In this document: positions 6,862 to 30,029 of the stretch, one piece after another
Layout of the letters: each line of letters begins with the position of its first letter
How positions within the stretch are numbered: the first letter of the stretch is position 1
Assembly: GCA_009784815.1 (NCBI GenBank)
Contig: WQXN01000001.1
Coordinates: forward strand, 140,876-204,875
Length of the DNA: 64,000 nt
Source: Alphaproteobacteria bacterium
Lineage (GTDB): Bacteria; Pseudomonadota; Alphaproteobacteria; Rs-D84
Reading direction: 5' to 3'
Position numbers and translations under genes: made by a program
The notes under the pieces: model-generated
Databases searched by the model: none
Seen by the model: the letters and a program-made list of their open reading frames with translations, nothing else
What the model was told of the DNA's origin: nothing

Positions 6862-6900
6862 GACATTGACTCCTATCTGTTCTTAGTTTAGCATAAGCTT

Positions 6901-7479
6901 ATGTTCGATGCAAAATGGTTTTTTAATTTGGAAAAACGCTTGGTTAGGGCCGGTCTTGGCTCGGACTTGGATAGTTTTGACGTCATAAAAAAGCGTCTAT
7001 CAAGCGGTGAAAAATTCGATGCCGACGAATTCGCGCGCCAAGCGGCTTATGTAATCTTGGCGGGCGGGTTTTCTCAAAAAACCGCCAAGGCCAAGCATGT
7101 GGAAATTATGGACGCTTTGAAGAAGGGTGCGCCGCTGGAAAATATTTTTAGGAATAAAAACAAGACCCGCGCGATTCAAAAAATTTGGAATGATCGGAGC
7201 GCTTGTCGCGACGGTTATTACAAATGCGTGGGCTTGGACGCCAAGCTTGATTATTTGGCCAAGCTGCCGCATATAGGAAAGATCACAGCGAATCATTTGG
7301 CGCGTAATCTGGGCGAGGATATAGTGAAGTATGACGTTTGGATAATGCGGCTTGGATCAAGGTTCCCGGGCGGGGCGGACAAAATGTTCGCGCATCTTGT
7401 TAAGGAAACTGGTTTGCCGCGCGGGTATATCGACGTGGTGTTATGGAAGGCTATGCAGCAGGGGTTGATTAATGATTGA
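6901..7479 (+). CDS. hypothetical protein with helix-hairpin-helix-like motif, possibly DNA-repair related
   Basis: LPHIGKITANHLARNLG resembles an HhH element. Overlaps the ung start by 8 nt, which suggests an operon. Confidence 0.35.
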   Translation: MFDAKWFFNLEKRLVRAGLGSDLDSFDVIKKRLSSGEKFDADEFARQAAYVILAGGFSQKTAKAKHVEIMDALKKGAPLENIFRNKNKTRAIQKIWNDRSACRDGYYKCVGLDAKLDYLAKLPHIGKITANHLARNLGEDIVKYDVWIMRLGSRFPGGADKMFAHLVKETGLPRGYIDVVLWKAMQQGLIND

Positions 7480-8137
7480 TGTAAAGATCGAGGAATCTTG
7501 GAAACAGGTATTGGCTGATGAATTCGCAAAGCCTTATTTCAAAGAGCTGACGGATTTCGTCCGCGCGGAATATAAATCGGGAAAATATATTTATCCGAAA
7601 GCGTCCGATATTTTCAACGCTTTCAACTTGTGTCCCTTTGATAAAGTCAAGGTCGTGATCATAGGTCAGGATCCTTATCACGGGCCGGGGCAGGCTCATG
7701 GGCTTTGTTTTTCCGTTAGGGAGGGCGTGGATCTGCCGCCCAGTTTGCAAAATATTTACAAAGAGATTAAGTCCGATCTTGGACGCGATTCCGCGACCAG
7801 CGGCGATCTGACCAAGTGGGCCGAGCAGGGCGTTCTGTTGTTAAATTCGACTTTGACCGTGCGCGCTCATGCCGCGGCTTCGCACGCGGGCAAAGGCTGG
7901 GAGCAGTTTACCAGCGCCGTTATTAAATCATTGACCGCGCGGAGCGGGATCGTGTATTTGCTTTGGGGAAGTTACGCCAAGCGCAAGGCGGAATCCGTCG
8001 ATCCGTTCGCGAATCTTTTATTAGAGTCCGTGCATCCCTCGCCGCTTAGCGCGCACCGCGGATTCTTCGGAAATCATCATTTTTCCAAGGCGAACGAGTA
8101 TCTGGCGAGCAAAGGCGGCGAGCCTATAGACTGGTGA
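7472..8137 (+). CDS. ung: uracil-DNA glycosylase (family 1)
   Basis: VVIIGQDPYHGPGQAHGLCFSV and HPSPLSA motifs. Confidence 0.9.
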   Translation: MIDVKIEESWKQVLADEFAKPYFKELTDFVRAEYKSGKYIYPKASDIFNAFNLCPFDKVKVVIIGQDPYHGPGQAHGLCFSVREGVDLPPSLQNIYKEIKSDLGRDSATSGDLTKWAEQGVLLLNSTLTVRAHAAASHAGKGWEQFTSAVIKSLTARSGIVYLLWGSYAKRKAESVDPFANLLLESVHPSPLSAHRGFFGNHHFSKANEYLASKGGEPIDW

Positions 8138-8138
8138 T

Positions 8139-9611
8139 TTAATGCCGTTCGGTGGTGCGGCCGGGTTTACCCCCGAAAGCTGCGGTTATCAGGACGTTGT
8201 TTCCAAATCTTCCCTGTATGTCCTTTGCTATATCGTCGTATACGGACATCGGAATATCGGTCGATACGAACGTGCTGAAGTTGAGCGTGTCTACGGAATT
8301 TATTTCGATCTTTAATAGTTTCCCGTCCGGGCCTCGGTGCTCGTGGTTTTCCTTAACTTGGGTCAGCGCGTACGACACCCGCGAAACGTCCTTTATTTTC
8401 ATCAGATTGTTCGCAAGCTGCTCGCGTTCGGCGTAATCAATTTCCGCGGGCGAACCGTTGGGGTAGAACATGCGTACTTCGACTTGGTATCCGTCCACGC
8501 GTTTGCCGTCAAGTGTCACGCCGGTTGTGGAGATCGTGTTGCAGAGAGTCACATAATGCTGGGACAGCTTGTCCAGATCACTATAGTTGGCGATCCATCG
8601 CCCTAATATTTCTCCGGCCGCGCTTCGCATTTCTTTGAACCTGTCGTTTATTACTCCGTCTATTCCGCGCGATCCGTGGCCGTTGTTATCGGCGGTGTTC
8701 AAAAGCGCGGCGAAATACTGGCGTGTCTTCCATGTCGGGTCTAGTTTTTTTATTTTTCCGCTGGCTATGGCTTGTTCGATTCTATATCTGACTATTGCGT
8801 CGCATATTCCGGTAAAGTCTAAGGATCCATTATCAAGGGTTCCGTCTACGCGCACTCCTAAACCAGGGCCGGGGAAGGCCGGTTGATTATATAATTCCAT
8901 GCTTAGTCCAAGATGCTCGCCCAGAGAAATAACCTGATGCTTCCAAATCCATTCCAAGGGCTCGACCACTTCTATGTTCGAGTTTTCCAAGCGTTCTGCC
9001 AGCCAGGGCACTTCGTTATGATGCGTTTTGGTAAAAACGCCGGTTTTGCCCTTGCCGGATTCCGACTTGTCCGCCGCGTTGGATCCTTGGAAAAAATACT
9101 GTATGTCGCCGCGCATATCCGCATAGTCTCCGAATATGTCGGCGAACAGGTTCCCTATGATCTGACGGCGACCAAGATCCGTTTCTGCATCGTCGAAGCC
9201 TGTGGCTTTGGCGAGTTCTTTTATGTAACGGACCCTTTCGTCGAGATATATGATGTCGCCGAACTGTTCTTGGAGAAGTTTGAGAAGTCGGTCCGTTTCA
9301 TATCCGAAATCGTCTTCGGAACTTAGAGGATAATCGCGGCGCAAGAGGCCGGTGTTAACGAATACCGGAATTACTTTGTCATGGCCGTAAAATTTTCTGA
9401 GAGCGGCCAGCAATGTTGTGGAGTCTATCCCGCCGGATACCGCGACCATGACTTTCTTTCCCGGAGCAAGAGGGTAATTATTGGTTAGGTAGTCGAATAT
9501 TTGCTGTTCTATTACATCGGGGGCGATCTCAGCGTTTTTATCCGCGGTTGGAATTTTTTCTTTGGTAGGAAATTTTGAAACAAAATTATTAGGTCGTTTT
9601 AAAGATTGCAT
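8139..9611 (-). CDS. GMP-synthase-like PP-loop ATP pyrophosphatase without a glutamine amidotransferase domain
   Basis: PP-loop VAVSGGIDSTT. FPGPGLGVRV. C-terminal GGKPGRTTERH resembles the GuaA C terminus. ATG at 9611 with AAGGA RBS. The track's N-terminal extension runs through tRNA sequence. Confidence 0.55.
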   Translation of the reverse strand: MQSLKRPNNFVSKFPTKEKIPTADKNAEIAPDVIEQQIFDYLTNNYPLAPGKKVMVAVSGGIDSTTLLAALRKFYGHDKVIPVFVNTGLLRRDYPLSSEDDFGYETDRLLKLLQEQFGDIIYLDERVRYIKELAKATGFDDAETDLGRRQIIGNLFADIFGDYADMRGDIQYFFQGSNAADKSESGKGKTGVFTKTHHNEVPWLAERLENSNIEVVEPLEWIWKHQVISLGEHLGLSMELYNQPAFPGPGLGVRVDGTLDNGSLDFTGICDAIVRYRIEQAIASGKIKKLDPTWKTRQYFAALLNTADNNGHGSRGIDGVINDRFKEMRSAAGEILGRWIANYSDLDKLSQHYVTLCNTISTTGVTLDGKRVDGYQVEVRMFYPNGSPAEIDYAEREQLANNLMKIKDVSRVSYALTQVKENHEHRGPDGKLLKIEINSVDTLNFSTFVSTDIPMSVYDDIAKDIQGRFGNNVLITAAFGGKPGRTTERH

Positions 9612-9681
9612 GGTTGGTTCCTTTTGGTTCTTCTCTCTCCAGAAGGCGGCCCGCCGCCCAAAGCTGCGCAGCAGCGAAGGG

Positions 9682-9726
9682 TGGTGCCCGCAGCAAGAAT
9701 CGGACTTGCGCCTGGTCCTTACCAAG
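9682..9726 (-). pseudogene. 3' half of a disrupted tRNA-Thr(GGU)-like gene (anticodon loop to CCA)
   Basis: Minus strand reads CTTGGTAAGGACCAGGCGCAAGTCCGATTCTTGCTGCGGGCACCA. It pairs perfectly with the 5' half at 16772-16809. Confidence 0.7.
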
Positions 9727-9830
9727 TATGACCTGCATTTACCCAATGACTGACCGGGCGACAGACCGCAGATAAGAACCAGATACGCTTTATACGCTTC
9801 CCGCTTGGGGCACGGTTTATTGTAATCTGA

Positions 9831-9904
9831 TGGTGCCCGTAGCAAGAATCGGACTTGCGCCTGCCCCTTACCAAGGGGCTGTTCTACCACTATACTATAC
9901 GGGC
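9831..9904 (-). tRNA. tRNA-Thr (anticodon GGU), element-borne intact copy
   Basis: 74-nt cloverleaf. Acceptor GCCCGTA/TACGGGC, anticodon stem GCCCC/GGGGC, loop TTGGTAA, T arm GCAAG-TCCGATT-CTTGC, encoded CCA. The T loop is atypical (C at position 55). Confidence 0.7.
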
Positions 9905-10033: not shown

Positions 10034-11221
10034 GTGAGATACAATAAATTCGTCTTCGATAAGCCAACATTAAATAAACTGCCATTTCCCTTGCTTCCAA
10101 TAACCAAATACACCTATTACGATTCTTGCCAACCGGGCTTGGCTCTTATCATTACCTATGGTGGAACAAAAGCATTCTACTTTTGCAAGACGCTAAACAA
10201 TCGCACCATGACCTATAAAATCGGCGACTTCCCGTATATGAGCGTCGAGCAAGCACGAGCTAAAATATTTGAGATGTTGCAAGACTTGCAACAAGGTATT
10301 ACGCCAATGGATACCAAAAGTCAAAAACGCAAGACCGCTATCACACTCGCGGACTTCTTTAATAATGAGTATATTCCAAAACACCTAAAATTCAAAGTCG
10401 GCGAAAAACGCTGCGGAAGAATGACAAGCTATTTCAATCGGTGCTTTAAGCATATTAGCCATAAGCTACTCGGCTCTATAACGAAAGAAGAATTGGACAC
10501 CATGCATAAATCATTGGGTCAGAATAATGGAATATATGCTGCCAATGCCGCTATATGTTTAATCAAGCGCATATATAATCGGGCTATTGATACCGAATTC
10601 GCCATTAGCAATCCTGCTACGAAAATAAAGCTGTTCAAAGAAAAATCACGCGAACGATTTATCCAGCCTGATGAAATGCCTCGGTTTATGAAAGCATTGT
10701 TGGAAAGCGAAAACGAGCAAATGAAGAACTACACCCTTTTATTGCTTTTAACTGGTCAACGAGGTTGCAATGTAAAATCGCTTAAATGGTCGGACATTGA
10801 TTTCCATAATAATTCATTATATTTGGAGCAGACTAAAAACGGAGAATCGCAACGGATACCATTGACCGAACAAGCTATCGGTTTATTAAACCAAATCAAA
10901 GACAAGCGCACAGACAATAGCGACTTTATATTTCCGTGTCGGAATACTCAAAGCAAAAATGGATATATGAATAATCCAAATCCTTATTGGCGTGAGCTAT
11001 TGCAAAAAGCCGAAATAACAAATTTGCGTATGCATGACCTGCGCCGGACTATGGCAAGTTATCAAGCCATAATCGGCTCGTCATTAAACATTATCGGTAA
11101 ATCATTAGGTCATAAATCCATTCAAGCTACGACCATTTATGCCAAACTGGACTTGAATCCAGTTCGTGAAAGTATGCAGAAAGCCACTGATAAAATTTTC
11201 AATTTAAGCAATAATCAATGA
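10034..11221 (+). CDS. int: tyrosine recombinase / phage integrase (P4-like)
   Basis: LRMHDLRRT and LGHKSIQATTIYAKL catalytic motifs. N-terminal GLALIITYGGTKAFYF arm-binding-type domain. GTG start. Confidence 0.9.
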   Translation: MRYNKFVFDKPTLNKLPFPLLPITKYTYYDSCQPGLALIITYGGTKAFYFCKTLNNRTMTYKIGDFPYMSVEQARAKIFEMLQDLQQGITPMDTKSQKRKTAITLADFFNNEYIPKHLKFKVGEKRCGRMTSYFNRCFKHISHKLLGSITKEELDTMHKSLGQNNGIYAANAAICLIKRIYNRAIDTEFAISNPATKIKLFKEKSRERFIQPDEMPRFMKALLESENEQMKNYTLLLLLTGQRGCNVKSLKWSDIDFHNNSLYLEQTKNGESQRIPLTEQAIGLLNQIKDKRTDNSDFIFPCRNTQSKNGYMNNPNPYWRELLQKAEITNLRMHDLRRTMASYQAIIGSSLNIIGKSLGHKSIQATTIYAKLDLNPVRESMQKATDKIFNLSNNQ

Positions 11222-11454: not shown

Positions 11455-12048
11455 TTAGTCAATGTATGTTTGGAATAGCATATTGGAAGTGAATAGGTTG
11501 CTTGTATCAATATATGGTTTGTTTAGCTTATATTCTTTGATAATATATTGGGACAATTTTTGTAAGTCATATACAGGTTTAATCAGCAAATGGTTTTGTT
11601 TAGGTGTATAGCATTTGTTTTTGGCCGATGGTGATTTGGATAAATCAATATCAAATGTGAATTTAGCTTTTTGATTGTTCATTGTCTTTATAAGTGATTT
11701 TTCTAGGTCTTCGATAGTTTTATGTTCAATATTCAAAATGGTATGGGCGTGTAATATATGAAGTTTGCCATGTTCGATAATGGTAAGGCTTTTATATGGG
11801 TGCTTATACCATTTTTTATTTTGCAATTTCGATAATAGTCCGGCAAGAATTGGGCGCAATGTTTCTTTGGCGGTTTCAATGTCTCTTTTGGGGTGGCAGA
11901 AATGAAGCGTCAAAAATATTAGGTTTTGAGGCTTGTCGGATTCGGATAAGACAAGGCTTCGTATCCAAGCGGCGAGTTCATGTTTTAATTGGTTGGCTGT
12001 ATCAGTCATGGCACAATAAGCATATAACTTTTGGGCAGGACAAGTCAA
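11455..12048 (-). CDS. putative HUH-endonuclease / rolling-circle Rep-like protein
   Basis: Ordered motifs IFLTLHF (motif I-like), LHAHTIL (HUH) and SQYIIKEYK (Tyr motif). The start is uncertain (TTG at 12048 or ATG at 12009). Confidence 0.4.
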   Translation of the reverse strand: MTCPAQKLYAYCAMTDTANQLKHELAAWIRSLVLSESDKPQNLIFLTLHFCHPKRDIETAKETLRPILAGLLSKLQNKKWYKHPYKSLTIIEHGKLHILHAHTILNIEHKTIEDLEKSLIKTMNNQKAKFTFDIDLSKSPSAKNKCYTPKQNHLLIKPVYDLQKLSQYIIKEYKLNKPYIDTSNLFTSNMLFQTYID

Positions 12049-12457: not shown

Positions 12458-13351
12458 ATGAAAAAGTTTATTGTCTTATCGGTCGTTGTTGGACTATGTG
12501 GTTGTGTGTCTTTAACACCGGAAGAATTGCAACATCAAGACGATATTAGAAACAGCAAAGAAATAGCAAATTGGACACGAAAAGCAGTTATAGGCGACTT
12601 TTCAGATTCCGATATTGCAAAATGTAATACGGCATATCCAAGATTTAATGATTTAGCTCAAAAGGCAAATTTTACCGATAAGGAATCGAATGAGTTTAGG
12701 TCTAATGGTAGAATTTTAGACAAATGCATCAAAGTTAAAAAATCAGTAGAAGACGCTAAGGAATGTATTAGTCTGTGGGGCAACGAAATACCGGGAACAA
12801 CATTCTGGACCAAAAGCAAAGCAGAAGAACAATGCGATTGGTGGGGTGTTGACTCTTATTCACATAGCGACGGATTCTATCGTTCCAAGTCGGCGAATCA
12901 GTCTAAATATTGTTCTCGATATAAGCGTATTTTCGAGTTAAAGGCTTGTGCTGAAGCTACGGAAAAAGAATTGAGTCGGATAAACTCCATGATTGCTATT
13001 GACTCGGACAAAGCAAACGAAAATGTAGCTAAATATAGAGAAAATCGTGAAAAAAAGCTATGTAATGAAAACTATATAAAAGGTTGTTTGTTTAATATTC
13101 CCTCAATGCAAGTATCATCAGTCCATAAAGACGGAGTTCTGCTAAGAACATCAAACGCTGCTTTGGAAGCAGGCATTTTAACTGGTGGTATATTCGGAAC
13201 ATTATCGCCAGGTAATAATATTTTTGTTTATACGAAAGATACTTATTTCGACGGAAAAACATTTGATGATGGTAATTATTATTACGAATATGTTGGTTTA
13301 TACCAATATGGCAGCAGGACAATTCCAGCCTTCAAGCGTTCCCTATATTGA
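12458..13351 (+). CDS. probable lipoprotein, Cys-rich
   Basis: MKKFIVLSVVVGLCGC signal with lipobox-like motif. GGGAG RBS. 297 aa. Confidence 0.55.
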   Translation: MKKFIVLSVVVGLCGCVSLTPEELQHQDDIRNSKEIANWTRKAVIGDFSDSDIAKCNTAYPRFNDLAQKANFTDKESNEFRSNGRILDKCIKVKKSVEDAKECISLWGNEIPGTTFWTKSKAEEQCDWWGVDSYSHSDGFYRSKSANQSKYCSRYKRIFELKACAEATEKELSRINSMIAIDSDKANENVAKYRENREKKLCNENYIKGCLFNIPSMQVSSVHKDGVLLRTSNAALEAGILTGGIFGTLSPGNNIFVYTKDTYFDGKTFDDGNYYYEYVGLYQYGSRTIPAFKRSLY

Positions 13352-13364
13352 TAAGGAGTTAAAA

Positions 13365-13910
13365 ATGAAATTTGATACTTTCTTCTTTGATTCTATACCC
13401 TTGAAATGGAATAGGAAAACTCGTGAAATAGATAAGTCTGTATTTTGGAAACAGGCTGAAACAAAGCAAGGCTTTCAAGGAATATCAGAAGCGAAAGGTT
13501 GTTATATATTCGGTTTATCGTGCGCCGGTGGGTTAATGCCTTATTATGTCGGACAAGCGAAGAAGACATTTAAGCAAGAAGTATTTGGTCTTCATCAAAT
13601 GCGCATATACGATAAATGTATAAACAATAATAAAGGAACGCCAGTCTTGATTCTCGTATCCGCTATGACAGGCAAGAACGAGTTTTCAAAAGCTAATCAC
13701 GATAAGGTAATAAATTGGGTTGAAGACTTGCTTATAAGTTATGCGTTAGAGCGAAATCCGAAAGTTGAGAACTCATCAAAGACGGCTTATTGGAAGAATG
13801 TCGAAATTCCTGGATTATGGAAAACAGGCTGGGGCAAGAACACAAAAGACAGCAACGCATTGAAAAGAATGTTCTTCGGACAGCAAAGAAAAAAGAGTGC
13901 TTGCAAATAA
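13365..13910 (+). CDS. GIY-YIG-like nuclease-fold protein (tentative)
   Basis: GCYIFG-x8-PYYVGQAKKTFKQEVFGLHQ resembles GIY...YIG...R/H. Later Glu in WVEDLLI. ATG at 13365 with AAGGAG RBS, 13 nt after the lipoprotein stop. Confidence 0.4.
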   Translation: MKFDTFFFDSIPLKWNRKTREIDKSVFWKQAETKQGFQGISEAKGCYIFGLSCAGGLMPYYVGQAKKTFKQEVFGLHQMRIYDKCINNNKGTPVLILVSAMTGKNEFSKANHDKVINWVEDLLISYALERNPKVENSSKTAYWKNVEIPGLWKTGWGKNTKDSNALKRMFFGQQRKKSACK

Positions 13911-14019
13911 TCAAGCCAAATATAATGTTTTGTTAAAGTTAAAGGCGGTTCCTTAAAAAATACTGGAATTGTTGCCTATATTTTTGTAGCCTAGCCATTG
14001 AAGGGAATAATACTAGCCA

Positions 14020-15243
14020 ATGGCAAATAAGAATACAGACTTTTTCAAGAAAAAGCACGACTGGTCTATAATCAAAGACGAGTTGCTAGGGTGGTATCTT
14101 GCGCCATATTTTGCCAAGGTATTACAGACAAACAAGCCGATACTTTATATAGATTGTTTTGCTGGTAAAGGAAAATTTGAAGATGGTGCAGACGGCTCTC
14201 CATTGATTGCATTGAAAATAAAAAAGCAGACATTGGAACGCACAACGGCAACAAATCCACAAATTACGACTGGCTTTATTGACGCTAATCATGCAGACGA
14301 CCTAAAAGCGAACATTGTGTCTTATTTTCCTGACAATACAAAGCTACCAGTTATAGATGGTAAATACGAGGAACATATCGAAAACGCTCTTAAAAACAAG
14401 GGTAAGGCAAATGTATTTTTATACATAGACCCTTATGGTATCAAGGCATTAGACTATAATATGCTAACGAAATTTGCTAATTCTGATTTCAATAGCATTG
14501 AGCTTCTTATCAATCTAAATTCTTTTGGATTTTTGCGTGATGGTTGCAGGGTGCTAAAAGTCAAGGAAATGGAAGATTTTAGTAGCGAACTAGTTGAATA
14601 TGAACCGACCGAAGTTAAAGCTGATGACGAGTCAACCAAGTTATTGAATAGTATAGCTGGTGGTGATTATTGGCAACAAATTATCCGTGATTATAATGAC
14701 AATAAGATAGATATGTATCGTGCGGAGAAAATATTTTCGTTCCAATACAAAGAAAAATTGCGTGAAAAATATAAGTATGTTGTTGATATGCCATTGCGCT
14801 TAAAAAGCGAACAATTGCCGAAGTATCGCATGGTTCATGCTAGCAATCACCCTGACGCTTGTGTTCTTATGGCAGAAAATATTAGTTCAAAAGCGAAAGA
14901 GCTTGTGTTTGGCATAAGACGCAAAGGACAGCGGAGTCTGTTTGATATGAGTGCTGATTCAGACATTATAACAATAGATGAAATAAAAGACGGAATAAAA
15001 AAGGTATTGGATAAATTTACAACCGATACTCATTTGAACGAAGTCCTGGCAACATTTTTTAGCGATTATGGTGTAATATGTAATGTCAAAGATGTGAAGG
15101 ATGTTATGGAAGAAATGGAAAAAGTGAACGAAATAAAAGTTTCAAGAATTCCAGACAAAACGGATAAAGGTGCGAAAACGACTTTCTTTTCGGAACATGG
15201 AAAAAATCAAGTTATGATAGGAAAAGTATTAGGAAAAGTATAA
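14020..15243 (+). CDS. TcmP-like (three-Cys-motif partner) protein with methyltransferase-like motifs
   Basis: YIDCFAGKGKF...GSP (FxGxG) and LYIDPYG (DPxG). Homologous to the ORF at 29160. Stop overlaps the next ATG (TAATG). Confidence 0.55.
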   Translation: MANKNTDFFKKKHDWSIIKDELLGWYLAPYFAKVLQTNKPILYIDCFAGKGKFEDGADGSPLIALKIKKQTLERTTATNPQITTGFIDANHADDLKANIVSYFPDNTKLPVIDGKYEEHIENALKNKGKANVFLYIDPYGIKALDYNMLTKFANSDFNSIELLINLNSFGFLRDGCRVLKVKEMEDFSSELVEYEPTEVKADDESTKLLNSIAGGDYWQQIIRDYNDNKIDMYRAEKIFSFQYKEKLREKYKYVVDMPLRLKSEQLPKYRMVHASNHPDACVLMAENISSKAKELVFGIRRKGQRSLFDMSADSDIITIDEIKDGIKKVLDKFTTDTHLNEVLATFFSDYGVICNVKDVKDVMEEMEKVNEIKVSRIPDKTDKGAKTTFFSEHGKNQVMIGKVLGKV

Positions 15244-16019
15244 TGCCGAAAGTGAATGGATATATTGAACGGAAGTCAATGCTTTACAAGACAGGCGTAG
15301 AGTATGGCGACTACACAATGAATCATGCGATTGGTTGTTCGCATGGTTGCAAATATCCGTGTTATGCTTTTTTAATGGCTCGCAGGTTCGGCAAAGCGGC
15401 CAATTATGAAGAATGGATAAAGCCTATTCTCGTAACGAACACACTTGAATTATTGGATAAGGAAATTCCAAAAATGAAAGACAATATAAAGTCTGTGCAT
15501 TTGTGCTTTACAACAGACCCTTTCATGTATGGCTATGAAGAAATAAAGAAGATGAGTTTAGCGGCTATAAAGAAACTAAATGAAGCTGGCATAAAGTGCA
15601 CTGTTTTAACCAAGGGCATTTTACCGAAAGACCTATCAAAGCTTTCAAAGAAAAATGAATATGGGATAACGCTTGTTTCCTTAAATGATAAGTATCGTAA
15701 AGATATAGAGCCTGGGTCTGCGCCATATAAAAGCAGAATTGCCGCATTAAAAGCCTTGCATGACGCAGGATTCAAAACATGGGTTAGTATTGAGCCTTAT
15801 CCAACTCCGAATTTAGTGGAACAGGATTTAGACGAAATTCTAGAAATTTTAGCATTCACGGATAAAATCATATTTGGCAGAACGAATTACAATTCCGAAG
15901 TTTCAGCATACAAACAACATAAAGCCTTTTATAATGAGCAAGCTAGGAAAGTCATAGAATTCTGCAAAAAGCGTAAGATTGATTACCATATAAAGAATGG
16001 AACTATTACAGAGGCTTAA
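15243..16019 (+). CDS. radical-SAM-fold protein of the SplB / DNA-photolyase-like (COG1533-type) class, with a variant Cys triad
   Basis: GCSHGCKYPCYAF (C-x3-C-x3-C), CFTTDPF, LTKG, RIAALKALHDAGFKTWVSIEPYP. Confidence 0.6.
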   Translation: MPKVNGYIERKSMLYKTGVEYGDYTMNHAIGCSHGCKYPCYAFLMARRFGKAANYEEWIKPILVTNTLELLDKEIPKMKDNIKSVHLCFTTDPFMYGYEEIKKMSLAAIKKLNEAGIKCTVLTKGILPKDLSKLSKKNEYGITLVSLNDKYRKDIEPGSAPYKSRIAALKALHDAGFKTWVSIEPYPTPNLVEQDLDEILEILAFTDKIIFGRTNYNSEVSAYKQHKAFYNEQARKVIEFCKKRKIDYHIKNGTITEA

Positions 16020-16771
16020 AGTCTTCGGATAAATAATAGTATGATTATCAATGCGTTTCAGCGAGGGTCGGTTGTATATGTTTATGGCAGGCATAAAAGG
16101 CTGCTTGGGTCTTACAATGGCGACTTGCAAAACCACACGAAAAATACGGTATCAATAAAAAGGGGCAATGTGGTCTATGTTTACGATTTCGAGGGAAATC
16201 AGGTCGATAGCTACAATTATTAAAATTGTATAACTCTTTGATATTAGCTTATTTCTGGTTTTTGGCGGAAAATTGAAATTATTTTTTCTTATGTTATAGT
16301 GCTTATTAAACATATCAATAAATGGTATGTATAACAAAAGAAAAAGAGAGAAAGTATGCAGTATTATTATACGCTAAAAAACAAAGTCAAAGAATATGAA
16401 GAATGGAGAGAAAAAACCCCAAAAACAGAATATAAAACTCTATATCATATAGGAAAAACACTCGATGAGTTAAAAGAATTTTTATCCTATCTAGACAGGC
16501 TTCATCAAATCAACGAACAAAAAGTTTTACTTTCTTAAAAGTAATCCTATCTCTATTATTTTATATAATAGAGATATAAAACGGAACATGACGCCATTTA
16601 TTTTTTTGCAAATTTTCTGATTTTTTACGCATTTTTAATTTCAAAAACTTGATAGAAACTTGAAACACGACGCAGTATGCGGGTCATCAAAAAACATCAA
16701 TATCTTTATCTAGTTGAAAATTGTTGAATCTTTTGTGCAACCGAGTGGGGATTGGGCTAGTGACTCGTATT

Positions 16772-16809
16772 CTTACCAAGGACCCGTTCTACCACTATAC
16801 TATGCGGGC
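16772..16809 (-). pseudogene. 5' half of the disrupted tRNA-Thr(GGU)-like gene (acceptor to anticodon loop)
   Basis: Minus strand reads GCCCGCATAGTATAGTGGTAGAACGGGTCCTTGGTAAG. TATAAT lies 10 nt upstream (16820-16825). Confidence 0.7.
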
Positions 16810-16829: not shown

Positions 16830-17573
16830 TTATATGAAGAAAATCAACAATATTATTCCAAGGACTACCCGGTAGGCCGCAAACGCCGCGAATGAGAAAT
16901 GGCGGACGAATCTAAGCATGAATCTTATCGCTAACAATGAGAATATGGCAGAAAGTCCCACCGTCCAGGCGGTAGCCGCCCAGTTTATGGCTTCGTCGCT
17001 GGTTACGGCCTTGATAAGTTCGTAACAGCCGGCCGCGCCGATCGCCGGCATCGACATTAAAAACGCGAAGTCCAAGGCGTCTTTCCGAGAAACGCCACGC
17101 GCACGCATCGCCGTGACCGTTATTCCGCTGCGCGATACTCCGGGTATAAGCGCAAGCACTTGCGCGCAACCCGCTATGAAGGCTGTGCGCATTGATACCT
17201 CGCGTTCGCTTTTGCCGAACCGATCTGCCGCATATAAGAGGATTCCGAATACTATTGAATTTATCGCTATGATCGTAATTCCGCGCGGTGGGTTTATCAG
17301 AAGTCCAAGCGCCAGTACGGGCACAACAGATACGGCGAGTTTTGCCGTCAGAGACCAATCCTTGAACGTCAAAATCTGGGCCACCCGCGCGCGGTAATGC
17401 CACATGACCGCAAGCAGGGCGCCCACATGAGCTGCTACGTCTATAAACATTCCTTGGTCCTCTACGTTTAGGACCGAAGGCAAAAGCGCCAGGTGCGCGG
17501 ACGAGCTTACCGGCAGGAATTCCGTAAATCCTTGTATCGCCGCGAGAAGCATTATGTAATCGAGTGTCAGCAT
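16830..17573 (-). CDS. uppP: undecaprenyl-diphosphate phosphatase
   Basis: FTEFLPVSSSAHL and PGVSRSG motifs. Polytopic membrane protein. Confidence 0.85.
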   Translation of the reverse strand: MLTLDYIMLLAAIQGFTEFLPVSSSAHLALLPSVLNVEDQGMFIDVAAHVGALLAVMWHYRARVAQILTFKDWSLTAKLAVSVVPVLALGLLINPPRGITIIAINSIVFGILLYAADRFGKSEREVSMRTAFIAGCAQVLALIPGVSRSGITVTAMRARGVSRKDALDFAFLMSMPAIGAAGCYELIKAVTSDEAINWAATAWTVGLSAIFSLLAIRFMLRFVRHFSFAAFAAYRVVLGIILLIFFI

Positions 17574-17644: not shown

Positions 17645-19411
17645 ATGAATCTTAACAGCGTTTACAGAACTTATACCTGTGGCAATCTGTCGCATAAAAA
17701 CGTCGGAGAATCCGTGGTGCTGTCCGGATGGATTCACCGCAAGCGGGATCACGGCGGGTTGTTGTTCGTCGATCTTCGCGATAATTACGGCATCACGCAG
17801 TGCGTGTTCGATTTGTCCGCCGCGGGTTTGGCGGGAATTGAAAAAATTCATCCCGAAAGCGTGATCACCGTGCGCGGAGATGTTGTTGCTAGGGACGCTT
17901 CGCAGGTCAACGACAAGATTCCGACCGGAAAGATCGAGGTAAAGGCCGCATCTTTCGAGATGCTGACCGAATCCCTTCCGCTGCCGTTCCAAGTCTTCGG
18001 AGAGGAGGAGACAAACGAGGAATTGCGTTTGAAGTACCGCTATCTTGCCCAGCGGCGCGAACGGCTTCACGCGAATATTCTTGGACGCAACCGCATTATA
18101 AAATTTATACGCGATCAAATGTGGGAATTCGGTTTTTCGGAATTCCAGACGCCGATTCTTACTTCGTCTTCGCCCGAAGGGGCGCGCGATTATCTGGTGC
18201 CTTCGAGATTGCATCACGGGCAGTTTTACGCTTTGCCCCAGGCGCCGCAGCAGTTCAAGCAGCTGCTTATGATCGGCGGGTTCGATCGGTACTTTCAGAT
18301 CGCTCCGTGTTTCAGGGACGAGGATCTGCGCGCGGATCGCACCATGGAATTCTATCAGCTGGATCTTGAGATGTCGTTCGTCGAGTTAAAGGACATTCAG
18401 GCCGTCGGCGACAGACTTATTCCGGCGGTTATAAAAGAATTCGTGCCGGATGCTAAATTAAGCGACGAAATTCCTCATATATCTTATGCAGACGCCATGC
18501 TGAAGTATGGCAGCGACAAACCCGATCTTCGCAATCCGATCGAGATCGCCGACGTATCGGAAATTTTTGCGAATTCCGATTTTGCGGTATTTGCCGATAG
18601 CGTCAAAAAGGGCAGCGTAGTGCGCGCGGTTCCGGCGCCAACCGTATCCGACAAACCGCGTTCGTTCTTTGATAAATTGGGCGAGTTCGCAATAGCGGAA
18701 TTGAAGCTTGGCGGATTGGGTTATATAGTTTTCGCGCCTGGCGAAGCCAAAGGTCCGGTTGCGAAAAAATTGACGCCGGAACAGGTCGAGGCGATCAAAG
18801 TGGCTTCCGGTGCCAAGGAAGGCGACGCCGTATTTTTCGTGTGCGAGGAAAAGAATGTCGCGGCAAAGGCCGCAGGTAAGCTTCGAGAAAAACTGGGCAA
18901 TGATTTGGGATTGATCGACGCGCGCGAATTCCGTCTGTGCTGGGTCGAAGATTTTCCGATGTACAATATAAATGAAGAGACGGGTAAAATCGATTTCGGT
19001 CATAATCCGTTTTCGTTGCCCAAAAGCGGTTTGGACGGCGATCCGCTGGAGATTCTTGCGAACCAGTTCGATTTGGTTTTAAACGGTTGGGAGATATGTT
19101 CGGGAGGGTTGCGCAATTATAATCCCGAAACTATGGTCAAGGCTTTTGCGATTGCGGGATATTCACAAGAGGATGTCAAAGAAAAATTCGGTGGAATGTG
19201 GAATGCGTTCCAGTATGGCGCGCCGCCGCACGGAGGATGCGCTTTCGGAGTGGACCGCATAATCTGCCTGATTTTGGGCGAGCCGAATCTTCGCGAATGC
19301 CACGCGTTCGTGACCAATCAAAAGGGTCAGGATTTGATGCTTGGGGCGCCGCGCGAAGTGTCCGAGCAGCAGCTGCGCGAAGCCCATATTCAAATTAGGA
19401 AGAAAGCTTAA
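17645..19411 (+). CDS. aspS: aspartate--tRNA ligase
   Basis: FQIAPCFRDEDLRADR and GGLRNYN motifs. 588 aa. Confidence 0.9.
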   Translation: MNLNSVYRTYTCGNLSHKNVGESVVLSGWIHRKRDHGGLLFVDLRDNYGITQCVFDLSAAGLAGIEKIHPESVITVRGDVVARDASQVNDKIPTGKIEVKAASFEMLTESLPLPFQVFGEEETNEELRLKYRYLAQRRERLHANILGRNRIIKFIRDQMWEFGFSEFQTPILTSSSPEGARDYLVPSRLHHGQFYALPQAPQQFKQLLMIGGFDRYFQIAPCFRDEDLRADRTMEFYQLDLEMSFVELKDIQAVGDRLIPAVIKEFVPDAKLSDEIPHISYADAMLKYGSDKPDLRNPIEIADVSEIFANSDFAVFADSVKKGSVVRAVPAPTVSDKPRSFFDKLGEFAIAELKLGGLGYIVFAPGEAKGPVAKKLTPEQVEAIKVASGAKEGDAVFFVCEEKNVAAKAAGKLREKLGNDLGLIDAREFRLCWVEDFPMYNINEETGKIDFGHNPFSLPKSGLDGDPLEILANQFDLVLNGWEICSGGLRNYNPETMVKAFAIAGYSQEDVKEKFGGMWNAFQYGAPPHGGCAFGVDRIICLILGEPNLRECHAFVTNQKGQDLMLGAPREVSEQQLREAHIQIRKKA

Positions 19412-19443: not shown

Positions 19444-22400
19444 TTATATTCCCAGGCGATGTCTTAGTTTGAACATTAGGATAGACTCGTTTCCGAATTG
19501 GGCCGAGTTGTCCGGGTTAAACCGATAGATCATGCCCATATTCGCCGTAGTCCAATCGCCCAGGTTTGCTTGGTAGGACGCGTCTAGGCGCAGCTCGCGG
19601 TTATTATTCGCCATATTGATCGTTCTGTTCTGCGCGTCTACCATCAGGTCAAAACCATGATCCGCTTCTACATTCTGCATGCGGACGTCCAGGTAACTTA
19701 CGTGGCCGCTTGTGACTGCAAGGGGCAGGGCCGCTCCGAACGAGAAATTGCCAAGGTCCAGTTTCGCCGATACTGCCGTAGAAGTAAACGGCGATATTTC
19801 CGACATGACCAGATTGCTTGTTCTATCCGGCGTAGTTCTTGCCATTTCCGCTGTTGCGCTGAACTTTATATCGTCCGAAAAATTCAAGCCGAAGTTACCG
19901 CGGGCGAAGGTCGTGCCGCTTCCGCCCATGTCCATCAGACCCGATCCGTACGCGCCCAAGATCGTGTCGGTTTCATAAACTTGTCCGACCGTCAGGCTTA
20001 GGTTATCGAACCCGGCTGTTGCTCCGAATCCGTACATTCTGCCAAGTTTAGGATCGCGCGCGTCTATGTCGTAGACAAGATTATCGCTGGCTTTGATAGT
20101 TCCCATAAAGCCGTCCATCCCAAGTTTGAACTTGCCGCGCTTGATGCCCGCGCTTGTCGAAATATTGTCCGACGCAAGGCCCATCAGGCCGAACGAGTCT
20201 ATCGCCCGCGCCTTATACTGCGTGTTCACGAAGGTTCTGTCGCCGTTCATGCTGAAGCTTAGTTCGCGCATATAGTTGTTGTCGCGCGCGTCCTGGCTGT
20301 TTTGGAGCGACAGTTTTACCCCGTTCATGTCCAGCGCGGTGACTGGGCCGTTCGATCCGAACTGGCGGAACTGGTCCACAAGGTCAAGGTTGCCGCGCAC
20401 GCTTTGGAAGTCCGCCGACTGGTTGAATATGCGGAACATGGAAAGGTCTTGGTCAGCTGATTCCACCGCGTCGAACATCGACACCGATATGCCGTTAAGT
20501 TTCGATCCGAAGGCCGAGCTTGGAACAAGCGCGGTATTGTTCAAAAACCTTTCGCCGACCAGTATAGCCGAGCCGTCGCTAAGCGCCGCCCCGCGGTTCT
20601 GAGACGAAATCAGTTGACCGGTTGTCGCGTTGCGGAATACAGCAAGCCTGCCCGGGGTGGTGGCGCGGTTTAGGTTCACTAGACCGTAGCCGAAGACTTC
20701 ACTGAACACCGTGCGGTAGTCTTCGCCCGCCGCGACGCGCGCCGCGTAATCAGCCGGCAGGTCGTAACGGTCGCGCAGCTGCGCTTCCGTCAGTTGGAAT
20801 CTATCCGCAGTAATCGCAAGCAGCGTGAATATTTCGCGCGTGGTCATATAGCTGAACGCGCCCATGACCACTCCGACTGATCCGGCCAAGGAAGCTACAC
20901 TCTGGTCGCTTGTTATTCCCGGAGAGGCGAAGCACCACGGGTCTAGGTTGTTAAAGCCGCGTCCTGTGACGGCGCCGCAGGCGCGGGCGCGCAGCACGTG
21001 GCCGTCGGGATCGCCGTATTGCGACAGGACTATTTTATTGGTTGAAGACAGTCCAAGGTTGCCCGTGATATTGCCGGCGATAGTTCCGTTCTGGGCCATG
21101 ACCGCGACCGAAGTCATAAACATATTGTTAAGTCCGGTCCAAAGTTTTGGCGCCAAATTTTCGACCGTGGCTGTAAGCGTCGTGGACATGCTTTCATGCG
21201 CGTAATAATCCCCTGCGCCGAATATCAGCATCGGCAGTCTGGCGTCGCCTTGATAACTTCCGAACAGGTTCACCGCGTCGACTCCGGGAGAGGTCGGATT
21301 GCTGGCTATGTAATTCGCAAAATCAGTCTGAGTCAAGCCTGTGCTTGTAAAGTCTTCCAGTTTTACGCGGTAATAGCTGTTGATTATGTCGCGGTATCTG
21401 TCTTGGCCCGTGCTGTTGGCGGGCAGCGAGGCGAAAAAGTCGGCGGTCGCCATGGACGCGCTGCGGGTGAATTCCGGAGAATTGGCGTTCGCGATTATAT
21501 GTATACCCAAATTCGTCGCGTTTTCGCGAGCTATGCGCATCGCGCGGAAATTCATGTGGTCTATCGGTCTGCCGTTCGAGTCGCGGCCGTTTCCTGTTCG
21601 CGCGATAGTCAGCTGGCCGTTAGGCATATATCCCGGAAAGTCTCCTATAATCATGTCTCCGGCGATGATTTTTGCAAGAAACGAATCGTCCAGGTAGTTG
21701 TTGTCTTGGACCAGCCTGTATTGGTTCCACGCGTTTTGTGCGCGCACCAATCCCGCCGGAGCCACTAATTCGCATCCAGTTCCGCCCGCCGGCGTGCAGT
21801 TGTCGAAGTTGCCCCATGTGCCGCCTTCCATAGCGTTGTAATAGATCACGAAGTCGGCAAAGCTGGCCGTGCCTTTATAAGTGCGGAACAGTATGCCTGT
21901 CAGCTGGCTTAGCTGGCTTGGGGTGAAGGACGGTGCCGAGCTTAGGATAAGGCCTGTTCCAAGGTCCGTCAGAGAATTGGACGACGAGTATATGGATGCG
22001 AAGTCATTCAAATTCGCCGTGCCCTGATAGCGGCGCCACTCGGCTTCGGCAAGCGTGCGGTCGTTGTTGGCTATGAACAGGCTGCCTATGTTGCAAGCCG
22101 AGTTCAGACCCGTGAACGATATGTCGCAGTTGGTGATCGCGGTGTCGGGAGCGCCAAGGCTTGCCATAGTGGAACCCGTCTGCGCGTAGTAGGTCAAAAA
22201 GGTTTCCCATGTCGCTTGTCTTGTGAATTTTAGGTATTCGAATCTTGCGGTGGTGTTCGGCGCAACAACTCCGGCGTATGCGTTCGTGAAGAGCGACTGC
22301 GCCGCCAGAGGATTCGTCCCTAGGAAAAAATTATATTTGGCGAATTGCAGGTCTCCCCACGACGAGGCGCTGAACACGTTAAACGCCGAGCGGCTGAGGG

Positions 22401-23499
22401 TGGTGTTGAAAGCCGAGTTTGAGCCGTCGAGGACCCAGCGCATATCTTCCGGATCAAACATAACTGCGCCGCTGTTCAGATGGGTTGGGATGTTCGCGAA
22501 TTTATTCGCGGGCATCGCGACCAGCGAAGGAGTGCTTGCGAAGCCTAGATTGTTCAACGCGCAGTTGCCTTGGCATTCCGCCCAGACTACGTCCGTCGTG
22601 CCGTCGTTTCTTGTCGCGCTGTCAGTTATGTTGCCGGCGCGTGTAACCCCAAGCCCTGTGACGAGCGCGACGTTGATCGGGCGGCCGCCTGTTGCTGGCA
22701 CTCCGCCTATGCTGCCCGCGTCGGCGGGATCTATGGTCGAGCCGTTGGCATTGCGCAGAGTCGACTGGCCTAGGTATCCGCGCGAATAGGCGTTATATGC
22801 GCTGTTCAAAAACAGGTAGTTGGTGCGGTTGCGAGGCTGGAAGTCGAATCCAAGCGGAACGTTCATGTCGCGCGTGATGTAAAGCGAGGCTTCGCCCAAT
22901 AGCGACGGCGCTCCGGACAACATATTGGTTTCGCCAGTATAGCTGCCGATTTCAAGATTTGGCTGCTGGGCCGCGGGTGCCAGCACAAGTTCCGATGTAG
23001 GGGGAGTTTCAGTATCTCCGCCGCCTCCGGGTCTGCCGCCGCCTCCGGTCGAGGGATTATTATTGTCGGATGTGTAAAGACCGGCCAGGTACGCAAGCGC
23101 CCCGACTCCTAGAGCGGCTCCGCCCGCGACAAGCAATGTGCTTTGCGTTGTGGTTAGTCCCGAGAATAATCCCACGTCTCCGCCTTGTTCGTTGTTGCGG
23201 CGGAACGCTCGGATTTCTTCGTCGCAGCGTGACGCGTCGGCTCCGTATCTTTGCAGCATTTGCGCCGTTCTGACGTCGTTGTTCATAATCGCTGTGCAGA
23301 CCAGACTCATGCCGCTTGGATCGCGGTAGTTGACGTTGACGCCTGACTGGACCATTGTGCGGACCGTGTTTTCATCGCCGGCGCGCGCGGCTTGGAGCAG
23401 TGCGCTGGCCTGTTCGAACGTGGTGCGCGCATAGGATGCAAGCGGAAGCGCTATTGCGGCGAAAAACAACGCGATTTTCACGAAATGCGAATTAAGCAT
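19444..23499 (-). CDS. very large secreted / outer-membrane protein with N-terminal ankyrin repeat and C-terminal beta-barrel-like region
   Basis: Signal peptide MLNSHFVKIALFFAAIALPLASYA. Ankyrin-like AARAGDENTVRTMVQSGVNVNYRD...TAIMNNDVRTAQMLQRYGAD. Gly-rich linker. Last ~280 aa show an alternating beta-strand pattern. Confidence 0.55.
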   Translation of the reverse strand: MLNSHFVKIALFFAAIALPLASYARTTFEQASALLQAARAGDENTVRTMVQSGVNVNYRDPSGMSLVCTAIMNNDVRTAQMLQRYGADASRCDEEIRAFRRNNEQGGDVGLFSGLTTTQSTLLVAGGAALGVGALAYLAGLYTSDNNNPSTGGGGRPGGGGDTETPPTSELVLAPAAQQPNLEIGSYTGETNMLSGAPSLLGEASLYITRDMNVPLGFDFQPRNRTNYLFLNSAYNAYSRGYLGQSTLRNANGSTIDPADAGSIGGVPATGGRPINVALVTGLGVTRAGNITDSATRNDGTTDVVWAECQGNCALNNLGFASTPSLVAMPANKFANIPTHLNSGAVMFDPEDMRWVLDGSNSAFNTTLSRSAFNVFSASSWGDLQFAKYNFFLGTNPLAAQSLFTNAYAGVVAPNTTARFEYLKFTRQATWETFLTYYAQTGSTMASLGAPDTAITNCDISFTGLNSACNIGSLFIANNDRTLAEAEWRRYQGTANLNDFASIYSSSNSLTDLGTGLILSSAPSFTPSQLSQLTGILFRTYKGTASFADFVIYYNAMEGGTWGNFDNCTPAGGTGCELVAPAGLVRAQNAWNQYRLVQDNNYLDDSFLAKIIAGDMIIGDFPGYMPNGQLTIARTGNGRDSNGRPIDHMNFRAMRIARENATNLGIHIIANANSPEFTRSASMATADFFASLPANSTGQDRYRDIINSYYRVKLEDFTSTGLTQTDFANYIASNPTSPGVDAVNLFGSYQGDARLPMLIFGAGDYYAHESMSTTLTATVENLAPKLWTGLNNMFMTSVAVMAQNGTIAGNITGNLGLSSTNKIVLSQYGDPDGHVLRARACGAVTGRGFNNLDPWCFASPGITSDQSVASLAGSVGVVMGAFSYMTTREIFTLLAITADRFQLTEAQLRDRYDLPADYAARVAAGEDYRTVFSEVFGYGLVNLNRATTPGRLAVFRNATTGQLISSQNRGAALSDGSAILVGERFLNNTALVPSSAFGSKLNGISVSMFDAVESADQDLSMFRIFNQSADFQSVRGNLDLVDQFRQFGSNGPVTALDMNGVKLSLQNSQDARDNNYMRELSFSMNGDRTFVNTQYKARAIDSFGLMGLASDNISTSAGIKRGKFKLGMDGFMGTIKASDNLVYDIDARDPKLGRMYGFGATAGFDNLSLTVGQVYETDTILGAYGSGLMDMGGSGTTFARGNFGLNFSDDIKFSATAEMARTTPDRTSNLVMSEISPFTSTAVSAKLDLGNFSFGAALPLAVTSGHVSYLDVRMQNVEADHGFDLMVDAQNRTINMANNNRELRLDASYQANLGDWTTANMGMIYRFNPDNSAQFGNESILMFKLRHRLGI

Positions 23500-28801: not shown

Positions 28802-28877
<76 letters not shown>

Positions 28878-30011: not shown

Positions 30012-30029
30012 AATTGATAGGATCGTGTC

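Follow-up and report, generated by a model that had tools for sequence, protein, structure and literature searches.

Pairs made of a TcmP protein and a three-cysteine partner have been catalogued before. PADLOC-DB v2 lists PDC-M30 and PDC-M41 as untested candidates, each being a pair of TcmP and DUF5131 (phage Gp37/Gp68) (bioRxiv 10.1101/2024.01.29.577857). The two candidates have different A families and share one B family, were flagged because they lie inside known defence systems (104 and 75 instances), and were outside the nine systems tested experimentally in that work (bioRxiv 10.1101/2024.01.29.577857). In a survey of 100 P. aeruginosa strains, 32 carried PDC-M30, and 68.8% of these carriers were phage-resistant, a correlation only. 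Our search of the published literature found nothing on the function of TcmP or DUF5131; what it returned was annotation tables, the list of PADLOC candidates and radical S-adenosylmethionine (SAM) systems of other kinds, such as Ophion and HXS. We have analysed a pair of this kind in a stretch of 64,000 nucleotides from an Alphaproteobacteria bacterium (contig WQXN01000001.1 of assembly GCA_009784815.1, positions 140,876 to 204,875). This whole stretch is called the window, and all coordinates refer to it. The pair consists of a TcmP gene and a radical-SAM gene, and we tentatively read it as a two-gene conflict module that would act on nucleic acid in phage-host conflict. The genes in question are:

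13365..13910 (+): p181, 181 amino acids (aa), island cargo
14020..15243 (+): TcmP, 407 aa, family TIGR04474
15243..16019 (+): radical-SAM partner, 258 aa, family PF04055

A preliminary description of the locus had proposed that these three genes form an undescribed modification or defence module on a mobile element. The three co-oriented open reading frames (ORFs) were found as it gave them, as were the motifs that it quoted from p181 (GCYIFG-x8-PYYVGQAKK) and TcmP (YIDCFAGKGKF...GSP and LYIDPYG) and the TAATG at 15241-15245 in which the TcmP stop codon overlaps the start of the radical-SAM gene. The radical-SAM gene is thereby predicted to be translationally coupled to TcmP. The description knew of no experimental characterisation, in agreement with our literature search. 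The word undescribed overstated the case, since the family has an NCBIfam model and PDC-M30 and PDC-M41 cover related pairs. By sequence comparison, the kind is already catalogued and the window pair is a distinct variant of it, with a separate B-subunit family.

The two proteins and their described relatives

TcmP matched TIGR04474, the three-Cys-motif partner protein model, at 111.1 bits (E 8.7e-32) against a curated cutoff of 53 bits, with residues 14-285 covering model positions 1-256 of 263, so the family assignment made earlier holds. NCBI and JGI both name its homologues TcmP. The AlphaFold2 model of TcmP, built from 51 homologues, had a predicted local distance difference test score (pLDDT) of 85.3 and a predicted template modelling score (pTM) of 0.85, and was laid out as a class I methyltransferase-fold domain (~1-295) followed by a C-terminal winged-helix domain (~319-407). 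On a Foldseek search with this model, ranks 1-9 were all E. coli RlmJ (E 2.9e-4 to 1.2e-3, prob 1.0), the 23S rRNA m6A2030 methyltransferase with the DUF519 fold (PDB 4BLV, 6QE5, 7P9O, 2OO3). Other fold matches were rRNA or tRNA methyltransferases, KsgA and Trm1 among them. When the RlmJ sequence was inspected directly, the TcmP motifs were found to recur there in the same order:

Motif I: TcmP KPILYIDCFAGKGKF; RlmJ KPFLYLDTHAGAGRY
GSP segment: TcmP DGSPLIA; RlmJ PGSPLIA
Motif IV: TcmP LYIDPYG; RlmJ LILIDPPYE
N-terminal lysine: TcmP K19 (invariant); RlmJ K18

TcmP therefore has the motif I pattern KP.LY.D..AG.G plus an aromatic residue, the GSPLIA segment, the D-P-aromatic motif IV and the N-terminal lysine of RlmJ. 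A global pairwise alignment of the two proteins was rejected as unreliable because of an insertion in RlmJ, and the claim is limited to correspondence at the level of motifs. In the predicted model, the TcmP fold is amino-methyltransferase-like and resembles that of the N6-adenine methyltransferase RlmJ, which bears out the likeness first suggested from the motifs. The DPYG form of motif IV was kept in 50 of the 51 homologues, and D-P-(Y/F/W)-G was present in all TcmPs examined, including the distant ones.

The two proteins also differ. TcmP lacks the helical insertion that RlmJ has after motif I and carries DP(Y/F/W)G where RlmJ carries DPPY. It has an extra C-terminal winged helix and a radical-SAM partner, whereas RlmJ is encoded by a chromosomal housekeeping gene. 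The likeness did not extend to sequence searches: TcmP matched no Pfam family in a scan at E <= 0.1, hence not the RlmJ family either, and a PDB profile search gave 0 matches at E <= 10. The C-terminal region (~319-407) is a helix/strand unit in the AlphaFold2 model, and the corresponding domain of TcmP members gave weak winged-helix matches to GMT-wHTH, MarR, PadR and MCM4_WHD, that to GMT-wHTH being above threshold in a Gordonia phage TcmP (31.9 bits). This winged helix-turn-helix (wHTH) domain was the most variable part of the pair, with a mean pairwise identity of 40%, as against 64% for the TcmP body and 74% for the radical-SAM protein.

The 258-aa partner matched PF04055 at 58.1 bits (threshold 29.5), residues 26-201 corresponding to model positions 1-164 of 166, and scored 24.5 bits with PF07505/DUF5131, narrowly under the cutoff of 28.9. 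Its cluster motif, GCSHGCKYPCYA, is CX3CX3C (C32, C36 and C40) and not the canonical CX3CX2C. This spacing was invariant in 26 out of 26 aligned homologues and in 72 out of 72 locus partners, none of which had CX3CX2C. Comparison by hhalign indicated that the protein and DUF5131 are collinear homologues (E 1.7e-4, 142 columns), with the blocks GCS..GCK..CYA, C..F..D, LTK and S(I/L)EP in common. Its conservation is striking (62-84% identity across phyla), and hints at a substrate that is strongly constrained, for example nucleic acid.

The partner had been described as a COG1533/SplB-like radical-SAM protein. The radical-SAM part of this stands on the PF04055 score, and the JGI label of its homologues, 'DNA repair photolyase', which we take to be the COG1533 product name, agrees with it; the models of the spore photoproduct lyase (SPL) type stayed below their cutoffs. 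The best NCBIfam matches were TIGR04470 (mobile pair B), Rv2578c and PA0069, presumably all COG1533-type families, at 52-57 bits and far below their cutoffs. As for SPL itself, PF20903 scored 12.9 bits against a cutoff of 27, TIGR04070 gave no match, and a PDB sequence search gave no meaningful match and none to SPL.

SPL, the characterised member of the SPL/DUF5131 neighbourhood, acts directly on DNA, and is a precedent for a radical-SAM enzyme doing so. RadicalSAM.org places DUF5131 and SPL as neighbouring subgroups of one megacluster (Megacluster 5). Like SPL and the COG1533 'SplB' proteins, the window protein is small, has a single cluster and no auxiliary-cluster domain, and is weakly collinear with them. 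It differs from them in its scores far below the SPL, Rv2578c and PA0069 cutoffs, its non-canonical cysteine spacing, its shorter length (258 aa), its obligate TcmP partner, and a context of the conflict type rather than of sporulation or repair. A conserved fourth cysteine (C88 here; C78 in a DUF5131 protein of the window) was considered as an SPL-like H-atom donor and rejected, as actinophage and Streptomyces DUF5131 proteins lack it.

Another described system is the radical SAM mobile pair A/B (TIGR04471/TIGR04470), which likewise consists of uncharacterised two-gene modules on mobile elements. The window radical-SAM protein matched pair B at 52 bits, and DUF5131 proteins matched pair A at 68-69 bits, all far below the equivalog cutoffs (355-410 bits). 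The mobile pair has two radical-SAM proteins, whereas the pair here has one, together with a methyltransferase-fold protein.

PDC-M30 and PDC-M41 are similar to the window pair in their A family (TIGR04474, with PDC-M30A/M41A matches), in having two genes, in their mobile or defence-island context, and in a B protein homologous to the window radical-SAM protein (GCS..GCK..CYA, LTK, S(I/L)EP). They differ in that the window protein belongs to a separate B family, which passes PF04055 and not PF07505 and has CX3CX3C instead of CX6CX2C. The two B types, CX3CX3C radical-SAM and DUF5131, nevertheless appear interchangeable, because a full-length PDC-M30A-type TcmP is paired with the same 258-aa radical-SAM family in a prophage. 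This gut prophage (L090-L093, about 6300-8777) encodes the closest relative of the radical-SAM protein (80% identity), directly after a CI-like S24 repressor gene, and the gene overlaps that of a 353-aa TcmP (TIGR04474 106.5 bits; PDC-M30A 170 bits over the full length).

A second, canonical pair was identified in the window:

28802-28877: tRNA-Ala(ggc)
29160-30011: TcmP-like protein, 283 aa (hhalign prob 95.8%, E 7e-9; PDC-M30A 56.8 bits)
30030-30770: DUF5131 protein, 246 aa, CX6CX2C (Pfam 273.7 bits; PDC-M41B 307 bits, PDC-M30B 300 bits)

The second pair (29160-30770) lies just downstream of the tRNA-Ala gene in a patch of ~30-37% guanine-cytosine (GC) content, and its DUF5131 gene starts 19 nt after the TcmP-like ORF. 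The 283-aa protein has the motifs DLFSGPG and DPWG and no C-terminal winged helix. Around this pair no integrase and no convincing att repeats were found. Against the PDC models it scored 56.8 bits for A and 300-307 bits for B. The CX3CX3C type (14020-16019) and the canonical DUF5131 type are thus both present in the window, which makes it a convenient test case.

Distribution and neighbourhood of the pair

Our analysis covered 79 TcmP loci taken from GTDB species representatives. The radical-SAM protein was encoded in 76 of them, immediately downstream of TcmP in about 72, and the usual overlap of the two genes was 1, 4 or 13 nt. The two proteins co-diverge (Mantel r = 0.41, reached by 0 of 999 permutations). 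The hosts of these loci were Bacillota, Bacteroidota, Spirochaetota, Desulfovibrionaceae, Synergistaceae, Akkermansia and one Actinomycetota metagenome-assembled genome (MAG). More than 1,600 TcmP relatives and at least ~8,000 radical-SAM relatives were found in one search, spread over Bacillota, Bacteroidota, Spirochaetota, Desulfobacterota, Actinomycetota, Pseudomonadota, temperate phages and plasmids. The tight coupling and horizontal mobility of the two genes are therefore as described earlier, and this sequence evidence supports a horizontally mobile TcmP and radical-SAM pair, not a trio, as the conserved unit.

A recurrent restriction-modification (R-M) gene was present within 6 genes of the pair in 33 of the 79 loci, and a recombinase in 12. 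Among the genes immediately downstream (n=71), about a quarter were DNA methyltransferases or restriction subunits; the Pfam counts, which overlap since some proteins match several of these families, were N6_Mtase 5, N6_N4_Mtase 5, Eco57I 4, C5 3, HSDR_N_2 3, ResIII 2 and HNH 2. Upstream genes (n=69) included regulators of the Cro/XRE type (HTH_26 in 8, HTH_3 in 5), and the nucleases Mrr, HsdR and YhcG recurred there. The GC content of the pair was usually below that of its surroundings (41 out of 66 loci). No conserved third gene was found beside the pair, either by clustering the 719 neighbouring ORFs from the 79 loci or by Pfam counts of the immediate neighbours.

The pair therefore shares with classical R-M systems its mobility, its location near R-M genes, XRE/C-protein-like regulators upstream, and an amino-methyltransferase-like subunit with a variable domain of the DNA-binding kind. 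It differs from them in having no conserved cognate endonuclease and a radical-SAM enzyme as its second subunit. Of the defence or R-M-like character proposed in the preliminary description, the context stood, through the R-M neighbours, a prophage immunity cassette and the PADLOC candidates; the pair is not R-M-like in the strict sense, because no nuclease is conserved with it.

Phage and plasmid records showed related arrangements. In Gordonia phage Easley (L174, MH155867.1, 4323-6814), gp39 is a TcmP (187 bits) and gp38 a DUF5131 protein (341 bits), and the two genes come right after the immunity repressor gp40, close to the integrase. This pair is convergent (gp39 on the + strand, gp38 on the - strand) and not co-directional. 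Two unrelated temperate phages thus have a TcmP pair straight after the immunity repressor gene. The gene order on a Streptomyces plasmid is Gp37/Gp68, then TcmP. In INPHARED, TcmP was found in only 11 records, 10 from Gordonia phages and one from an unannotated fecal contig, none known to be virulent.

Nine TcmP loci (L058, L060 and seven others) had two tandem paralogues of ~460 aa immediately upstream, at positions -2 and -1. In each of them an HEIGH Zn-protease motif (ImmA/IrrE-like) occurs together with several zinc ribbons, and the paralogues may serve a subset of modules as their own regulator or sensor.

The island and its other cargo

The pair and p181 lie in a 6.9-kb low-GC block of the window, with ~35% GC as against ~50% in the flanks. 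The features of the island and its edges, besides the three genes given above, are:

9831..9904 (-): tRNA-Thr(ggt), the integration target (ARAGORN, Rfam)
9867-9904: left copy of the direct repeat, within the 5' half of tRNA-Thr
10034..11221 (+): tyrosine integrase of the island (PF00589 95.5 bits; Arm-DNA-bind_3 39.3 bits)
11455..12048 (-): 197-aa ORF, possibly a small Rep-like protein (weak PF23343 REP_ORF2-G2P match, 15.5 bits, below cutoff)
12458..13351 (+): 297-aa lipoprotein-like cargo ORF, with an N-terminal signal/lipobox-like VVGLCGC
16041-16223 and 16356-16538 (+): two 60-aa ORFs at the distal end of the island (from the ORF list; genes in the source contigs too)
16772..16809: right-hand repeat copy, matching part of the tRNA-Thr 5' half, at the island boundary
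16830-17573: uppP, a housekeeping gene directly after the island
17645-19411: aspS, a housekeeping gene after uppP

At either end of the island lies one copy of an imperfect 38-nt direct repeat of the tRNA-Thr 5' half. The two copies are 89% identical, and the right copy also matches the tRNA-Thr 5' half and upstream flank of a relative (L095). In this relative the tRNA-Thr lies ~1.2 kb from uppP-aspS and the island is absent, and the insertion is therefore confirmed by an empty site. The mobile element named in the preliminary description is real in all these respects, and a second, independent sample carries the same island. The AspS of the host shares 82% identity with its counterpart in termite-gut 'Rickettsiales' MAGs and 63-72% with that of Candidatus Enterousia, and the host is therefore an uncultured gut alphaproteobacterium.

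The 181-aa protein had been likened to a GIY-YIG nuclease and counted as the third gene of the module. No match to p181 was found in Pfam, NCBIfam, PADLOC or PHROGs, and the assignment was not supported. Neither p181 nor its eight relatives (9 members in all) gave a GIY-YIG Pfam match even at E <= 10, and PDB profile searches with alignments of 9 and 106 sequences were negative. When the 106-sequence profile was compared by hhalign with the N-terminal domain of E. coli UvrC, only a short off-register match was found (prob 1.6%), in which the motifs were unaligned. An exhaustive profile search gave a family of 1,752 cluster representatives at E <= 1e-3. Its invariant residues are G45, Y47, Y61, G63 and N136, with E72, E120 and N131 near-invariant, and E72 fills the position of the GIY-YIG catalytic arginine. 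Some p181 relatives are tandem duplications of ~380 aa.

The p181 model (pLDDT 74) has the topology bb-aa-b-a (b45-53, b56-65, a, a, b92-101, a114-130). Its PDB fold matches include the UvrC GIY-YIG domain (1yd5, 1ycz; template modelling (TM) score 0.43-0.48) and T4 EndoII, all non-significant (E >= 0.4), and several GIY-YIG proteins are among its top BFVD fold matches, also non-significant (E about 0.03-1.2). A GIY-YIG-like fold is possible on this model. Structure prediction with Foldseek thus connected TcmP to RlmJ (E 2.9e-4) and left the GIY-YIG matches of p181 below threshold.

No p181 homologue was found in any of the 79 TcmP loci, and neither TcmP nor the radical-SAM gene in any of four genomic contexts of p181 relatives, whose neighbours were toxin-antitoxin genes, transposases and a resolvase. 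Because of these two counts p181 is taken as separate cargo and no part of the conserved module; of the proposed trio, TcmP and the radical-SAM gene are co-conserved and p181 is not. Promoter and terminator scans around p181 and the pair gave counts at shuffle expectation and are uninformative on separating p181.

The 297-aa gene was considered as a conserved partner of p181 and rejected, as it is unlike the 290-aa neighbour of the closest p181 relative; Pfam and NCBIfam scans gave no family match for its product, and no significant one for the two 60-aa ORFs. In the 197-aa ORF an HUH-like motif, LHILHAHTIL, was spotted by eye, and the island might therefore be a mobilisable or replicative element and not a simple integrative island.

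Further features lie outside the island. An extra partial tRNA-Thr (~54 nt) at 9682-9735 is 92-94% identical to the tRNA-Thr of related genomes, and, ~100 nt past the 3' end of the intact tRNA-Thr, may have been left behind by an earlier integration or excision at this site. A 528-aa ORF next to the tRNA-Thr (8139-9725, -) gave only a marginal QueC/PP-loop match (22.3 bits); its longest-ORF version reaches 9890 and overlaps the tRNA, and the source contigs call the shorter form. A 1,351-aa ORF (19444-23499, -) combines a signal-like N-terminus with ankyrin repeats (Ank_4 23.8 bits), gave no other family match, and may encode a secreted or outer-membrane effector-like protein.

Possible function of the pair

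From the family membership, fold, motif conservation, gene coupling, mobility and genomic context described above, we infer for the pair a nucleic-acid substrate, a division of labour, a chemistry and a defence phenotype. TcmP would be the targeting subunit, whose variable C-terminal winged helix would bind nucleic acid, most likely DNA. Its RlmJ-like domain, with a pocket of the N6-adenine-methyltransferase type, would bind SAM and flip the target base, which it would either methylate or merely present. The radical-SAM protein would hold a [4Fe-4S] cluster on its three cysteines, convert SAM to the 5'-deoxyadenosyl radical, and carry out radical chemistry on the same nucleotide. The role of the pair would be in conflict between elements, with the host or a resident element defended against an incoming phage or foreign DNA. 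We favour defence or conflict over self-modification because the pair sits in prophage immunity cassettes, because TcmP is absent from virulent phages in INPHARED, because related pairs are embedded in defence systems and the window-type pair lies beside R-M genes, and because XRE-type regulators are frequent upstream. Taken as a whole, this conflict reading is possible and falls somewhat short of even chances. A more specific form of it, which may be called 'radical restriction', is doubtful: in it TcmP, a base-flipping protein derived from a methyltransferase, would present nucleotides of the invader, and the radical-SAM protein would damage or irreversibly modify them with no nuclease involved.

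Several points weigh against the conflict reading. The match of TcmP to RlmJ is moderate (TM ~0.5 normalised to RlmJ, E about 3e-4), and hhalign aligned the two at motif I alone (24 columns), with low probability. The closest relative of TcmP with a solved structure, RlmJ, works on rRNA, and by analogy the substrate could be RNA. The cysteine motif of the partner is non-canonical, so that radical-SAM activity itself is assumed; cysteine spacing varies among other radical-SAM enzymes too, and CX3CX3C does not exclude activity. No nuclease is conserved with the pair, no nuclease family stood beside it in more than about 3 of 70 loci, and no component for discrimination of self from non-self was conserved with it. 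An accessory or anti-restriction role would equally explain why the pair lies near R-M genes. The window pair matches the PDC models weakly, at 52.6 bits for A (residues 5-166 only) and 21.5-23.5 bits for B. In INPHARED, DUF5131 was found without TcmP in 176 phage records, and because of this the DUF5131-type B enzyme probably has roles independent of TcmP. Finally, the function suggested for the pair is drawn from sequence, predicted fold and context.

The proximity to R-M genes could also be read as self-protection. The pair would then put an unusual base modification on the DNA of its element or host, for example by methylation followed by radical elaboration, and restrict nothing, so that mobile elements survive the R-M systems of the gut community. 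The methyltransferase-like fold with motifs I and IV intact is consistent with such anti-restriction, as are the location of the pair on islands, prophages and plasmids, its GC content below that of the flanks in 41 of 66 loci, the lack of a conserved nuclease partner, and a variable wHTH domain that could set sequence specificity. However, temperate phages carry the pair in the lysogeny or immunity cassette next to the repressor, away from the replication or late genes that would be the place for modifying progeny DNA; virulent phages lack TcmP, and relatives of the pair are embedded inside defence systems. Self-protection is hence unlikely, though it deserves to be kept in mind.

RNA modification has a slim chance. 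Here TcmP would modify rRNA or tRNA in the manner of RlmJ, and a further change to the same or a nearby nucleotide would be made by the radical-SAM protein, with an effect on translation such as antibiotic or toxin resistance or a block of phage translation. The best structural matches of TcmP are all RlmJ, with the rRNA and tRNA methyltransferases KsgA and Trm1 among the others, and in prophages some of the DUF5131 genes overlap or border on a feature with the annotation 'RNA methyltransferase'. But the neighbours of the pair are mostly DNA methyltransferases, restriction subunits and recombinases rather than translation or resistance genes, the nearest characterised neighbourhood of the radical-SAM protein (SPL) is DNA-acting, and the C-terminal matches of TcmP are winged helices of the DNA-binding type (MarR, PadR, GMT-wHTH).

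DNA repair is less probable still. The radical-SAM protein would reverse a lesion as SPL does, TcmP would be its partner for lesion recognition or SAM handling, and the pair would be a mobile fitness factor. The 'DNA repair photolyase' label of JGI and the weak collinear similarity to SPL (PF20903 at 12.9 bits; TIGR04470, Rv2578c and PA0069 at 52-57 bits) point in this direction. Yet all SPL-type scores are far below their cutoffs, and the PDB sequence search gave no match to SPL. Most of the hosts are anaerobic gut bacteria, the genes around the pair belong to R-M and immunity and not to repair, and a methyltransferase-like partner has no role in SPL chemistry.

The original three-gene R-M-like system, in which a p181 nuclease would restrict DNA without the TcmP/radical-SAM modification, is very improbable, for although the genes share one orientation, with a short interval of 110 bp and no + strand terminator separating p181 from TcmP, and p181 has the pattern G-x-Y...Y-x-G...E...N, the bb-aa-b-a topology and GIY-YIG proteins among its top non-significant fold matches, p181 and the pair do not co-occur (0/79 and 0/4), no GIY-YIG profile matched the 9 members at E <= 10, the UvrC comparison by hhalign failed, and a near-invariant E72 stands at the catalytic arginine position. 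The probability left after the conflict reading and these alternatives belongs to some other explanation.

TcmP pairs are widespread across phyla, phages and plasmids. If the pair installs a new modification of DNA or RNA, it would be an addition to the known epigenetic marks. If it defends by radical chemistry under the direction of a methyltransferase-like reader, this would be a new effector principle in prokaryotic immunity.

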